Assembly: GCF_041886205.1 (NCBI RefSeq)
Contig: NZ_CP169029.1
Reading direction: 5' to 3' (one strand)
Length of the DNA: 64,000 nucleotides
Source: Escherichia coli
Lineage (GTDB): Bacteria; Pseudomonadota; Gammaproteobacteria; Enterobacterales; Enterobacteriaceae
Positions 43,001 through 49,000 of this stretch are shown piece by piece (positions within the stretch are counted from its first letter, which is position 1; each line of letters starts with the position of its first letter). The position numbers were made by a program.

Positions 43001-46000
43001 CACCATGTCGCTCTCTTCAACTTCCACGTTGTCGAGATAGACTTCGCAGGTGCTGAGCATATGCCAGCCGATTTTATGCAGCGGGTTAATCTTAATGCCG
43101 GGCTTACTGGAGTCGACCCACCACAGGGTGAAGGCCTTTTTCGGATCATTCGGTTCAGGATCGCGCGCCAGCACCAGCATATATGGGTACTCTTTCGCAC
43201 CGGTAATAAAGGTTTTCTGTCCGTTGATGTAAACCTTGCCGTTTTTACGCGTGTAAGTGGTGGTGGCACTGTTGTTGTCTGAGCCTGCGCCTGGCTCCGT
43301 CAACGCCAGGGCATAGGCGGGATCACCCGTTTCCAGGGTGCTTTCTGCCGTTTTACGTAGCTGCTCTGCAGAACCGAAACGGCGCATACTGTGAATACAT
43401 TGACCGTTGGTGATCAAAAATGCCGGAGCACCGCATTTTGACACTTCCATCAGCGCCAGCATCTGGGTGACGTAATCCGCAGGGATACCACCAAATTCTT
43501 CCGGCACGCCAAGCATGGAAATACCGTTATCCGCCAGTGCCCGCATAAATTCACGCGGGTATGTCCCGTTTTGATCGCAGGTGCGGAAATACTCTTCCGG
43601 AAAGTTAGTCGTAATCAGTTCGCGAATACTGGCCAGCAGCAGTTCTTGTTCTTCAGTTAAAGAAAAATCCATCGTGATACTCCTGTTAATGAGCCGCTTC
43701 AGGCAGGACAAAACCCATCGCCGCATCGATAAATAATCTTTCGTCCATCAGTTTGAGTTCTGGCGAAATCACTGGGGTGAAATCCATTTTGTCGAGAATA
43801 TCTTTTTGTAAATCGACGCCAGGGGCGATTTCGATTAAATGCAGTCCGTCTTCTTTCAGCGTGAATACTGCGCGCTCAGTGATATAACGAACATCCAGCC
43901 CTCGCTCGAGAGCGATTTTTCCGCTAAAAGTAATTTCCGGTAGTTCCCGAATAAATTTATTTACCCGTCCTTCCTGGACGATATTCAATTTGCCGTCGGT
44001 AATTTCTGTTTTTAAACTGCCCGCAGTTAATGTGCCGCAGAAAACGATTTTCTTCGAAGTGGCACTGATATCAATAAATCCACCGGTGCCCATGATTTTA
44101 CCATTGAATTTATGCACGCCGACGTTACCGTGCTGGTCGACTTCAGCAAAACTCAAATAACAAACATCCAGACCGCCACCGTGATAAAAATCAAACTGGG
44201 ACGTCATATCCAGAATGGCGCGGGTATTCACGTTCGCGCCAAAGGCGATCCCCTGTGAAGTAATTCCGCCAATCGGACCTGTTTCTACCGTCAGAATAAA
44301 GTCATCAGCACAACCTTCTTCTCGGGCGACCAGGCCAATGCCGTCAGCAATACCGACGCCGACATTCCCCACCGCGCCTTTACGCATTTCGAATAATGCG
44401 CGCCGCGCAACTAATTTACGTTGGTTTAGGGGCAGGCTAAGTTTGGTACTGTCATCAAGGGTGAAGTCACCAGAAATAAAGCGGTTAACCGGTGCACCGC
44501 CATACAGTTGGGTTTGATCCGGATCGACCACCACAATATCCACCAGATAACCCGGAATACGGACAGATTTAGGATGCAGCGTGGCTTTCTTAACCATTTT
44601 CTGCACCTGCATCATCACAATACCGCCGTTATTGTGCACCGCCTGGGCAATAACCAATGCGTCGAGATACATCACCTCATCTTCAAAAGTGGCGTAGCCT
44701 TCGCTGTCGCAGGTGGTAGCGCGAATGAAGGCGATATCTGGCGCAATCGCTTTGTAATAGAGATATTCTTTGTTATCAAACTCGACCAGTTTAATCAGGT
44801 CTTCTTTAGTGACTTCATTCAGTTTGCCGCCTTGCTGGCGTGGATCGACAAATGTCCCGATGCCAATATCACTAATAATACCAGGCTGGTGGGCTGCGGC
44901 GGCGCGTAAGGTTTGTGTAAGTACACCTTGTGGATAGTTATAAGCAATAATTTTATTTTGTTCTGCGAGATCAGAAATACGCGGCGATTGTCCCCAGTGA
45001 CCGCATAATGCCCATTTCACCAGACCTTCTTGCGCCAGCGGACTAATACCGCGATCGGCGCGATCGCCAAGCCCTGTTGGACTAATAATCGATAAATTAC
45101 GTGGCGTTTGAGTCTGTTTATATTTATCAGCAAGAGCAGTAATTAACGTGGTGGCTTCCAGAATACCGCCGCCAGCGCCTAACACACAAAGTGTTGCTTC
45201 GTCGGGAATATAATTCACCGCTTCCGGTGATGCTGCCAACTTACTGATTTAGTGTATGATGGTGTTTTTGAGGTGCTCCAGTGGCTTCTGTTTCTATCAG
45301 CTGTCCCTCCTGTTCAGCTACTGACGGGGTGGTGCGTAACGGCAAAAGCACCGCCGGACATCAGCGCTATCTCTGCTCTCACTGCCGTAAAACATGGCAA
45401 CTGCAGTTCACTTACACCGCTTCTCAACCCGGTACGCACCAGAAAATCATTGATATGGCCATGAATGGCGTTGGATGCCGGGCAACCGCCCGCATTATGG
45501 GCGTTGGCCTCAACACGATTTTCCGCCATTTAAAAAACTCAGGCCGCAGTCGGTAACCTCGCGCATACAGCCGGGCAGTGACGTCATCGTCTGCGCGGAA
45601 ATGGACGAACAGTGGGGCTATGTCGGGGCTAAATCGCGCCAGCGCTGGCTGTTTTACGCGTATGACAGGCTCCGGAAGACGGTTGTTGCGCACGTATTCG
45701 GTGAACGCACTATGGCGACGCTGGGGCGTCTTATGAGCCTGCTGTCACCCTTTGACGTGGTGATATGGATGACGGATGGCTGGCCGCTGTATGAATCCCG
45801 CCTGAAGGGAAAGCTGCACGTAATCAGCAAGCGATATACGCAGCGAATTGAGCGGCATAACCTGAATCTGAGACAGCACCTGGCACGGCTGGGACGGAAG
45901 TCGCTGTCGTTCTCAAAATCGGTGGAGCTGCATGACAAAGTCATCGGGCATTATCTGAACATAAAACACTATCAATAAGTTGGAGTCATTACCCCGCTTC

Positions 46001-49000
46001 CTGTGCCGACAGGACCGGCACTCGTCCATTAATACGAGGTGGTTTTACAGGTTTCATTGTTAATTCCTGATTCAGGTGTGATTTTCCCTACGCCAGATGG
46101 AGAATTAGCGCACAGAGACTCACGAAATATTTTTATTAAATACGGTTAACTATATTTTTTTTAGTTCGGCGGGGGAGGGTATTCCCGCCGAAATATTATT
46201 GCTTATGCCTGATGTAAAATAGTTAATACAGTGCGCAAATCATTTACCGAGATTTGCCCTGGTGCAGAGGCTTTTTTTACCGCACCAAAAGTTGCCGCCG
46301 AGCCAAATACTTCACCAGCCAGACGAGAAATTACGCCAGTTTTTGCCATCGACATCGTGATGATTGGACGATCGGCATACTGCTCCTGCATCTCCAGGGT
46401 CGCGGCAAGCAACGTCAGCACATCGCTGGTACTTTGCGGCATCAGCGCAATCTTAGGAATATCGGCGTCGAAGGACTGCATTTTGCGCAGACGGGCAATG
46501 ATTTCTTCGGCTTCCGGCGTTTTATGGAAGTCATGGTTGGACATGACAACTTTCACATCATGCGCGTGGGCGTAGGCGACGGTTTCTTTAACCTGATCAT
46601 CGCCGGTAAATAACTCCAGATCGATCATATCAACCAGGCCGCTGTCGATGGCTGCACGATTGAGAGCAATATAAGCCTCGGTGGAAATCGCCTGCTCGCC
46701 GCCTTCTTTGGCACTGCGGAAGGTAAACAGCAGCGGTTTTTCTGGCATGGTTTCACGGAGAATTTTTGCCGCCGCCATGACAGACTCCACATTGGAGAGG
46801 TCGGCAAAGTGGTCCACACGCCATTCCAGAATATCAAAGTCCGCTTCACGATAGGCGAGAGCTTCGGATTTCACGCGGGCGATATCTTTCGCCATCAGCG
46901 AGACGATGATTTTAGGTGCGCCCGTACCAATGACGAGATCTTTTACAGTTACGGTTTTCATTTTTTACCCTTTCTGCACGCGGTCAGCCTGTCAGGCACC
47001 GAACCCCATGACCTGTTTAACATATTCCAGAGGGAAATCTTTGCCAGTCCATAACGTGAACTGTTCAGCCCCTTGCCACAACAACATGCCGTATCCATCA
47101 ATCGTTTTGCAACCAGCTTGTTGCGCCTGCTGCAATAACTTCGTCATATGCGGGTTATACACGCATTCAGTGACCAGAAGTCCCGGATGTAACAGACTGA
47201 TATCATTAACTAATGATTCATTCTCAAGGGGTTTCATACCCACTTTTGTGCCATTGGTTAAAATGTCGGCGGAAGCCAGGGCTTCAGCAAAGGCTTGCTG
47301 ATCGGCGAGATCGGTAACCGTGACGACACAATCGGTGTTTTCGTTAACCCGCTGCGCGAAGGCGAGGGCTTTATCGAAGAACTCATCCCGACGGTTAAAG
47401 AGTTTAATTTCTTTTAAACCTTCAATTGCCCCCTGCGCGCCAATCGCCGTTGAGGCACCTCCGGCCCCTAACAGCACCATTGTTTTGCCTTTGATATCAA
47501 AACCGCTCTCTTTAATGGCGCGAATATGGCCCGTGCCATCGGTGTTATAGCCGCGCAGGTAGCCATCATCATTAACGATGGTGTTGATGGCACCCACCAG
47601 TTTGGCTGCCGGCGTTAATTCATCAACATATTCACACGCCAGTTGTTTGTTCGGCATTGATACACCAGTTCCGCGCATTTTTAGAGCTTTTAATCCTTCA
47701 ATTGCTCCGGGAAAGCTATCGTTATCCACTTCGAAGGCCATATAGGTAAATGGCAATCCCGCTTTTTCTAAGGCTTTATTCTGCATTTCAGGCGATAAAC
47801 TGTGGCGGATAGGATAAGCCATCAACCCAATCAATTCGTATTTTGCGGTAACATCCATAATTAACTCCTTTAACCTCTATGCTTAATTGTGTTTAACCGG
47901 GTGCTAAATTTGCGCTCGCCAAACCGCACATCATTCTCAGGAATAATAAAAACGCGGTAATAGCGGATAAAAACAATAATTGCGGTAATCAGGGCCAGCA
48001 GCGCGAAAGTAAAATCGAGAACAATGATATATTGCAGGCCGATGTTCGACAGATAACCGGTAATCAGCGGAATAACAAAGTTAGCCAGTCCACCCATCAT
48101 CATATAAATACTGGTGACTTTGGCTTTGCTTTTTGGGAAAAACTCTGACATGACCGAAACACCGAGCTGTAAAATGCCGCCAGCTGCTGAGAAACCGATA
48201 ACAAAGGCGCCGGCATTACACACCAGTGGAGAAGGGTACAGGTAGATAATGGCTGCTGTTATTGTTGCCAGTGCAGAGTTAAATACATTAGCCCAGATGG
48301 GCCGGACCATTTTTTTCAGTAGTGCGGCAAAAATAAAGACACAGACCAACGAGCCCATACTGTAATAAGAGATGGTTTTTAATGCCTCAGCTTCTGACAT
48401 ACCAGCAAAAGCCATCGCATATTTGGGCATCCACACCACAATCACATAAAAGGTCGAGAATGCGGCTACACCGAACAGTACCGATGAAACACCTTCCAGC
48501 CAGACTAACGGTTTGCTGTTCATTTGCGGTAATTCATTAGCTACGCTGGCGTCCACCAACTGGCTGGGGAATTTGCTTTTCAACAGCATCAGCGTGATCA
48601 GTACAAACAGAATACCCGGAATAATCAGCCCATAGCCGTACCAGATATTATTGAGCAACATATAGCTCACCAGCATTGGGTAGAACATTTGCCCGAATGA
48701 CACCATCGCTTTAACCAGTATGACCGCCGAACCAGAGGCTTTCGGAAAGCATTCCATGAGCGCGGGGTAGCCACCCGTATCCAGCGCTGAGTTAGCGATA
48801 CCTACGCACACTGCCAGACCGTAGGCGAGAGTTAAATTCGGGCAAGCGGGAATACCAAAGAAGAATAGCAGATACATTATTACTGCCATTAATATCACCG
48901 CCCGACGACCAAACTTATCGGAGATCACACCGAAGAATAAAATACTGATCAATCGCCCCAAACCGATACCGGAAATTAAGTAGGCAATGCCCGCGTTGTC

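Follow-up and report, generated by a model that had tools for sequence, protein, structure and literature searches.

A probable recent IS1 insertion at ydiF codon 22 in an Escherichia coli lineage of commensal type

What does an IS1 element standing close to the start of ydiF leave of this gene and of the genes behind it, and how did it come to be there? The locus lies in a window of 64,000 nucleotides (the whole stretch of E. coli DNA that was analysed), in which the gene order aroD-ydiF-ydiO-ydiP-ydiQRST-fadK agrees with that of K-12 and of E. coli wlxctx60. The assignment of the ydiFO and ydiQRST-fadK cluster to 'anaerobic beta-oxidation' is taken from PMC3967523. The reading that we favour, with a probability of roughly 0.88, is that an intact IS1 jumped recently, in one simple transposition event, into codon 22 of ydiF, the host being an E. 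coli lineage of commensal type.

The IS1 element and its target site

The element, one of three IS1 copies in the window (copy C), was located at 45226..45993 on the + strand. It is complete, with a length of 768 bp, and both of its ends match the canonical ends with 0 mismatches, IRL at 45226-45248 (GGTGATGCTGCCAACTTACTGAT) and IRR at 45971-45993 (ATCAATAAGTTGGAGTCATTACC). The element contains insA (45281-45556), which is open and encodes an InsA of 91 aa, the insB' frame (45475-45978) and the A6C frameshift motif (45532-45538). When a -1 frameshift was simulated at A6C, the resulting InsAB' was 232 aa long with 0 stops and matched NCBIfam NF033558 'IS1 family transposase' with 243.8 bits (cut-off 100). 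Copy C has the length of an IS1 family member, the ~23-bp imperfect terminal inverted repeats, the insA/insB' frameshift and a target-site duplication (TSD) within the 8-9 bp range. Its transposase genes are antisense relative to ydiF. Over all 768 bp it is identical to copy A (16141-16908), whereas 26 nt differences separate it from copy B.

The element is flanked by two copies of the 8-bp TSD CCGCTTCC, the left one (45218..45225) joined to the body of ydiF and the right one (45994..46001) joined to its 5' stub. In the sense of the gene, which is on the - strand, the repeat reads GGAAGCGG and spans the last base of Gln19, Glu20, Ala21 and the first base of Val22. It is not extendable to 9 bp (A versus C at the left, G versus T at the right), and the chance of an exact 8-bp repeat abutting both canonical ends is about 1.5e-5. 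The exact ends and the flanking repeats agree with the preliminary description of this locus, which had given the same IS1 boundaries with an 8-bp TSD and had placed the insertion after about codon 21; from the position of the TSD the site is codon 22. The start edge of ydiF that it gave, 46056, did not hold, as the ATG begins at 46057. Its remark that 8-bp duplications are rarer than 9-bp ones was borne out by a survey of 12 IS1 events from this window and other E. coli, in which the TSD was 9 bp in 10 and 8 bp in 2, and by reviews that give 8 or 9 bp for IS1 (PMC12428005, PMC12903888). The 8-bp TSD is a minority outcome, yet inside the known behaviour of IS1.

Excision of 45226..46001, that is of IS1 and one repeat, yielded an uninterrupted 531-codon ydiF ORF that is identical to ydiF of wlxctx60 at 1596/1596 nt. 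The comparison with K-12 that had been proposed as a check gave 16 nt differences and three residue differences (E104D, I413V and K441N; 528/531 residues identical). The reconstructed YdiF matches the PDB entries 2AHU, 2AHV and 2AHW ('putative enzyme ydiF') over residues 1-531 with 1187 bits, and its catalytic Glu333 (E333) sits in a VETG motif. Since the wild-type gene is reconstructed perfectly, transposition into ydiF can be regarded as settled. The IS1 is the sole lesion in ydiF.

Remnants of ydiF and the genes around it

The intact IS1 in codon 22, with its 8-bp TSD, splits ydiF into a 22-residue stub, whose TAA stop lies in the end of the element, and a body of 510 codons. The stub (45989..46057, - strand) starts at the ATG at 46057 and consists of ydiF codons 1-21 followed by a Gly codon and the TAA stop, both contributed by the IRR end of IS1; its predicted product is MKPVKPPRINGRVPVLSAQEAG. 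The decapitated body (43686..45225, - strand) runs from codon 22 to codon 531 and the stop, and it is 100% identical to the matching part of ydiF of wlxctx60. It is severed from the native promoter, ribosome-binding site and ATG. It keeps the catalytic Glu333 and nearly the whole conserved domain, the family alignments beginning at residue 16-17, so that the CoA-transferase alpha-type domain is missing only some 6 positions at its beginning.

The ORF listed for this body (43686..45239) begins at a TTG within IRL, at 45239, as the preliminary description had stated, and its claim that the body has no nearby in-frame ATG is also correct, the first being Met204 at 44672. Three in-frame start candidates were found, TTG 45239, GTG 45218 and GTG 45185, and a good Shine-Dalgarno sequence precedes none of them. 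The GTG of codon 22 (45218, GTG22) has a weak GGA ahead, and a gene caller predicted a 510-residue product from it, for which exact matches were found in 3 Logan contigs only. An exact sequence look-up of the 517-residue ORF with the TTG start returned no record. A hairpin at the junction, TCACCGGAAGCGGTGA, covers GTG22 and had been flagged as terminator-like; it was rejected in this role as its folding energy is ordinary (z = -1.24). Low-level translation of a near-full-length YdiF from GTG22 may occur.

A full-length YdiF is a family I CoA-transferase of 531 residues with fused alpha and beta parts, CoA_trans domains and the catalytic Glu333 (PDB 2AHU), and the gene as it stands consists of a stub and a body with no start codon of its own. 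Because it is split in this way, the locus is a ydiF pseudogene. The loss of the start has almost certainly silenced ydiF, judging from the arrangement of the two remnants. The allele would then be a null allele, and YdiF, which we take to be a short-chain acyl-CoA:acetate CoA-transferase, would not be made.

The genes ydiO, ydiP, ydiQ, ydiR, ydiS, ydiT and aroD are 100% identical to those of wlxctx60, and fadK carries one substitution (K528R), in agreement with the earlier view that ydiO, ydiQRST and fadK are intact. The gene next to the ydiF body, ydiO (42521..43672, - strand), encodes an acyl-CoA dehydrogenase, with 1152/1152 nt identical to wlxctx60 and 785.9 bits to NCBIfam NF008997 (cut-off 537). 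It starts 13 nt past the ydiF stop, with its own AGGAG Shine-Dalgarno sequence, and ydiFO has been handled as an operon (bioRxiv 10.1101/2020.04.27.065417). IS1 now stands between the ydiF body and the 145-bp aroD-ydiF intergenic region (46058..46202, - strand). A GC-rich hairpin lies in this region at 46165-46192, and a consensus scan of the region's - strand found no sigma-70 consensus promoter. No non-coding RNA was found between 42400 and 47100 (0 Rfam matches at E <= 1).

Rho-dependent polarity is classical for IS1 insertions in either orientation, and the IS1 mutations of the gal and lac operons are the classical cases of polar inactivation by this element. At ydiF, transcripts that start upstream would have to run through the antisense IS1 (768 bp) and then through ydiF sequence left untranslated (about 1.5 kb), and Rho-dependent polarity would be expected to lower the expression of ydiO strongly. 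This makes ydiO the likely target of polarity, with a predicted reduction in its expression; an internal ydiO promoter inside ydiF may counter the effect. The other genes of the cluster, ydiP, ydiQRST and fadK, are divergently or separately transcribed and should be unaffected. The allele shares with classical IS1 inactivation the 768-bp element, the 23-bp inverted repeats, the insA/insB' A6C motif, the short TSD, an interrupted gene that is the first of two in a probable operon, and the expectation of polarity. The mechanism is the same; what is new is the site alone, at codon 22 of ydiF, and the TSD has 8 bp where 9 bp is commoner.

Age of the allele and alternative readings

Leaving the three IS1 copies aside, the window differs from wlxctx60 by 8 SNPs and 0 indels over ~62.6 kb. 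With so few SNPs and an identical ydiF, the insertion must be very young. Strain wlxctx60, the nearest relative, is a commensal-type E. coli, an ordinary strain from faeces. A Shigella origin had been suspected from the density of IS1 and was rejected, since the window is 8 SNPs away from E. coli wlxctx60; no Shigella or EIEC marker was found in the 64-kb window. Three or more sequenced isolates or runs carry the ydiF::IS1 allele. A query with 300 bp of the junction did not find the same allele in 5,426 complete E. coli genomes. Two seeming full-coverage matches to the junction (L012 and L001) proved to be pieces joined from different insertions. In the assembly of run SRR29303307, ydiV is intact and the site of IS1 copy B is empty; in this lineage the ydiF::IS1 allele arose before IS1 entered ydiV.

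The same gene has been disrupted elsewhere. Among the 5,426 complete genomes, other E. coli carry at least ten further IS1 insertions and three IS1-linked deletions in ydiF or its leader. Examples of the insertions are LR-64-1, 401656, EC06, PD7, AR_0114, AVS0456, 20AR0479 and SC516; they lie ~110-1195 nt from the ATG, with one at 43 nt upstream of it, and PGAP labels these alleles as split CoA-transferase pseudogenes. The TSDs of these events are 9 bp in eight and 8 bp in one. The deletions (LR-06, 873.10 and strain 10) have no TSD, and ydiO is lost in them through to ydiP or fadK. The insertion in our window involves the same gene and element family, and differs from these alleles in being the nearest to the start of the coding sequence. 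IS1 was found in ydiF in ~20/5,426 genomes, a count of the single orientation that the search can detect, as places in the BLAST search merge same-strand pieces only and IS1 copies in the opposite orientation miss the coverage needed to be listed. An apparent orientation bias, with 13/13 IS1 copies in the ydiF region pointing the same way, is an artefact of this merging.

These repeated hits bear on the possibility that the loss of ydiF was selected during an expansion of IS1, in parallel to the loss in Shigella and to the decay of ydiFO/ydiQRST in extraintestinal Salmonella. We consider this unlikely. It draws on the many independent IS1 hits in ydiF of other E. coli and on the presence of ydiF among 32 genes 'specifically absent in Shigella strains' (PMC2617782, Touchon et al. 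2009, Table 6), losses that the authors suggest were positively selected. The case in the window resembles that of Shigella in the gene lost and in the IS1-rich member of the species E. coli that lost it, but the host here is of commensal type and the Shigella side is known from the literature. Against selection stand the nearest relative, an ordinary faecal strain, and the untouched remainder of the cluster. By rough arithmetic, with a median of ~10 IS1 matches per genome, the frequency of ~20/5,426 exceeds what a uniform distribution would give by a factor of only a few, an excess to be expected for a dispensable gene under neutrality. The sharing of the allele by three runs may in turn reflect clonal descent or repeated sampling.

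A related and equally tentative idea, to which we give little weight, is that ydiF::IS1 may have been the first local step in an ongoing burst of IS1 in a commensal-type clone, in which loss or rewiring of ydiFO was perhaps selected, as an incipient and Shigella-like convergent loss of ydiF. It derives from the number of new IS1 copies, three within 64 kb as compared with 8 SNPs relative to the nearest sequenced relative, and from isolates that carry copy C only, then C and B, then A, B and C. The lineage does seem to be gathering IS1 copies quickly.

Somewhat less probable still is that the insertion rewired the locus rather than silencing it, with a hybrid promoter at the junction that would take the ydiF body and ydiO out of native control and drive both, and with a truncated YdiF arising from GTG22 or from the TTG in IRL. 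A candidate hybrid promoter reading from IS1 into ydiF was found on the - strand (45210..45239), with a -35 TTGGCA in IRL, an 18-nt spacer and a -10 AATTAT in ydiF DNA. Fusion promoters created by IS1 are documented (Prentki et al. 1986, as cited in PMC12903888), and the candidate has the same outward -35-like element and flanking -10-like element at 18 nt; here the consensus match is at threshold, and the promoter is predicted from sequence. The ydiO ribosome-binding site and the retained Glu333 and domain would suit such a rewiring. But the 9/12 consensus matches are the minimum of the scan, and the region has 3 such sites where 4.0 are expected in shuffles. The predicted transcription start, near 45203, lies downstream of TTG 45239 as well as of GTG 45218, so a near-full-length protein could not be encoded by this transcript; the next in-frame start, GTG 45185, lacks a Shine-Dalgarno sequence. 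The ~1.5 kb of untranslated RNA ahead of ydiO would invite Rho termination, and the ordinary stability of the hairpin over GTG22 also argues against it.

That a repeat was collapsed or misplaced into ydiF during assembly is very improbable: IS1 is multicopy, with three copies in the window and copy C identical to copy A, but a clean 8-bp TSD with canonical ends is a product of transposition and not of misassembly. In addition, the Logan assemblies of two different SRA runs, SRR28800585 and SRR29303307, are independent of each other, derive from short reads and stop in IRL at the identical junction; each opens with one and the same stretch of 29 nt from IRL that leads into GGAAGCGGTGAAT, and each agrees with the window at 100% identity. 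Neither an intact ydiF at this position nor an assembly error, the two findings named in advance as speaking against the insertion, was encountered.

Meaning of the disruption

Recent simple transposition of IS1 therefore remains the best account of the locus. Its most likely consequence for the cell is neutral or nearly so; ydiF is dispensable and a recurrent IS1 target in other E. coli. The event is a routine, textbook insertional inactivation of a dispensable gene and calls for no new mechanism. For annotation, ydiF should be given here as an IS1-disrupted pseudogene and not as a protein of 517 or 510 residues. Metabolic models of the strain should drop the YdiF CoA-transferase and treat ydiO as probably under-expressed. 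In the wider context, the allele joins the repeated IS1 hits on ydiF across E. coli and the reported loss of this gene in all Shigella.

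The IS1 element in ydiF

The IS1 ends were placed by reading 43400-46400 and by searching for both terminal inverted repeats (IRL and IRR). Three copies were located: copy A at 16141-16908 (- strand), copy B at 28614-29381 (+ strand) and copy C, a complete element of 768 bp, at 45226-45993 (+ strand). Copies A and C are the same in sequence and copy B differs at 26 positions. The terminal-repeat search and the flanking bases confirmed the 8-bp duplication proposed for copy C in the preliminary description: CCGCTTCC is found on both flanks (45218-45225 and 45994-46001), and the repeat is 8 bp, not 9, because the neighbouring bases differ. 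Copies A and B are flanked by 9-bp duplications. InsA (91 aa) is open in copy C, as is InsAB' (232 residues) via the A6C site at 45532, and the latter passes the NCBIfam IS1 transposase model (243.8 bits, cut-off 100). The transposase genes are antisense to ydiF, so that IRL abuts the body of the gene.

Once 45226..46001 (IS1 and one duplication copy) is deleted in silico, the - strand again holds an ORF of 531 codons, which matches ydiF of E. coli wlxctx60, the nearest sequenced relative (NZ_AP045833.1), at 1596/1596 nt and differs from K-12 ydiF by 16 nt and 3 residues. The restored protein aligns end to end with PDB 2AHU/2AHV/2AHW ('putative enzyme ydiF') and keeps the catalytic Glu333. The duplication takes in the last base of codon 19, codons 20 and 21, and the opening base of codon 22, which fits an insertion after about codon 21; the ATG of ydiF starts at 46057, so the end coordinate first given, 46056, is one base short. 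The 5' fragment (translation MKPVKPPRINGRVPVLSAQEAG) ends at a TAA from the IS1 end. The reading frame of the 3' fragment is open from within IRL, with possible in-frame starts at TTG 45239, GTG 45218 (Val22) and GTG 45185, none of which has a convincing Shine-Dalgarno sequence; as first remarked, no in-frame ATG is near, the first being Met204 at 44672. In total, 96% of the coding sequence is severed from its promoter, ribosome-binding site and start codon, which most likely makes ydiF a null allele here.

Predicted effects on ydiO and the cluster

The gene order ydiN-ydiB-aroD-[IS1]-ydiF-ydiO-ydiP-ydiQRST-fadK-ppsA is that of K-12 and wlxctx60 apart from IS1, and all genes from ydiN to ppsA other than the split ydiF are intact. 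Except for fadK (K528R) and ydiB (one silent change), these intact genes do not differ from their wlxctx60 counterparts. The view that ydiO, ydiQRST and fadK are intact held. A gap of 13 nt separates the ydiF stop from ydiO, which is preceded by an AGGAG of its own and whose product passes the acyl-CoA dehydrogenase equivalog model.

Transcripts from the aroD side would have to pass through IS1 in antisense and a further ~1.5 kb of ydiF that is not translated. Rho-dependent polarity, a classical property of IS1 insertions, would then probably starve ydiO of message. ydiFO is regarded as a single operon (bioRxiv 10.1101/2020.04.27.065417). ydiP is transcribed divergently, with ydiQRST-fadK on its far side, so expression of these genes should stay unaffected.

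Alternatively, the copy C/ydiF junction might form a hybrid promoter reading into ydiF. A consensus scan picked out a candidate -35 TTGGCA in IRL and a -10 AATTAT after an 18-nt spacer, and fusion promoters created by IS1 have a precedent (Prentki et al. 1986, as cited in PMC12903888). However, this match is the scan's minimum and shuffled sequence does as well. The predicted transcript would also begin downstream of TTG 45239 and GTG 45218, so a near-full-length protein could not be encoded, and a 1.5 kb untranslated leader ahead of ydiO would remain. Folding of the junction hairpin was not significant. Loss of ydiF, with probable polarity on ydiO, is the better reading.

No Rfam family matched across 42400-47100. 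A GC-rich hairpin at 46165-46192 in the aroD-ydiF spacer has a terminator score for the + strand only (from IS1 outward to aroD); read from aroD to ydiF, the hairpin leads into an A-run instead of a T-run. The spacer is 145 nt, 3 nt longer than the 142 nt of K-12, and the C and A runs next to the stem are longer too.

Origin and age of the insertion

The 12 kb right of the insertion are essentially identical to wlxctx60, a faecal isolate. Besides the three IS1 copies, all missing from wlxctx60, the whole window differs from it by 8 SNPs and no indels over ~62.6 kb, so the insertion is very recent and has left ydiF no time for further decay. The copy C/ydiF junction was found in none of 5,426 complete RefSeq E. 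coli genomes, whereas three Logan assemblies of SRA runs contain the 510-residue ORF that starts at GTG22. The SRR28800585 contig opens with 29 nt of IRL fused to GGAAGCGGTGAAT..., precisely the arrangement of the window, and extends for 15.9 kb until it reaches the IS1-B site. The contig from SRR29303307 also has this junction at its start, matches the window at 100% identity and passes through an empty IS1-B site, with ydiV intact. The shared junction shows that it is real and rules out an assembly artefact. The empty IS1-B site next to an occupied ydiF indicates that, in this clone, ydiF::IS1 predates ydiV::IS1; the isolates appear to form a series of IS1 gains, C only, then C+B, then A+B+C.

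Copy B splits ydiV, encoding an anti-FlhDC factor, at about codon 181/237, with the duplication CGAACCGTT at 28605-28613 and 29382-29390; in SRR28800585 it is seen as a contig break. A 300-bp ydiV/IS1 junction query was at least 80% covered in 15 complete E. coli genomes, in several of them through joined pieces, and the insertions there may therefore lie at sites other than that of copy B; the pattern might reflect selection on motility. Copy A (duplication GCTCTGATG) lies within the espL1/arpB pseudogene region beside thrS and, to judge from the length of the contig, is absent from SRR29303307. Within the cluster, FadK K528R (fadK 36191-37837) is the one amino acid that differs from wlxctx60; the exact variant occurs in 8 Logan contigs, 3 of them with ydiF::IS1, and so defines a clade somewhat wider than that of the insertion.

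IS1 insertions in ydiF of other E. coli

IS1 elements were mapped in another twelve E. coli genomes with a copy in the 2.7-kb ydiF region. Nine of them have simple insertions, each at a site of its own: in one genome 43 nt upstream of the ydiF ATG, in the others ~110-1195 nt from it, with duplications of 9 bp in eight and 8 bp in one. Adding the window's three copies gives 10 events of 9 bp and 2 of 8 bp, which agrees with reviews giving 8 or 9 bp for IS1 (PMC12428005, PMC12903888) and with the initial remark that 8 bp is the rarer. In the other three genomes IS1 has no duplication and is joined to deletions of ydiO through ydiP or fadK; the direct fusion to fadK, ydiO or ydiP sequence in LR-06, 873.10 and strain 10 identifies these as IS1-mediated adjacent deletions of part of the ydi cluster. 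The insertion upstream of the ATG belongs to GDSC2239PM (locus 4726-5493, 9-bp duplication GCCAGATGG), where an IS5 also splits ydiO (locus 1782-2750); this arrangement reads as independent decay of the ydiF-ydiO two-gene unit.

The apparent shared orientation of all IS1 copies near ydiF is an ascertainment artefact of the search's same-strand joining. Counting the detectable orientation only, roughly 20 of 5,426 genomes carry IS1 in ydiF, by rough arithmetic only a few-fold excess over uniform expectation, as a dispensable gene would show. Touchon et al. 2009 (PMC2617782) count ydiF in a set of 32 genes that Shigella strains specifically lack, and ydiFO, ydiQRST and fadHIJK decay in extraintestinal Salmonella (Nuccio and Baumler 2014, PMC3967523).

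The sequence confirms the original observation and, within what it can show, supports the interpretation. An IS1 knock-out of a routine, well-known kind has struck a frequently hit, dispensable gene. What is new is the insertion site, in the codon 22 region of ydiF, which has no previous record. Only two features are mildly unusual: the 8-bp duplication, though IS1 is known to make these, and the locally high number of new IS1 copies relative to SNPs. Both IS1 sequence variants (A/C type and B type) are newly inserted relative to wlxctx60, and three new copies against 8 SNPs in ~62.6 kb hint at an active IS1 burst in the clone. Should the whole genome show the same ratio, IS1 would be expanding on a large scale, and still doing so, in a commensal-type clone.
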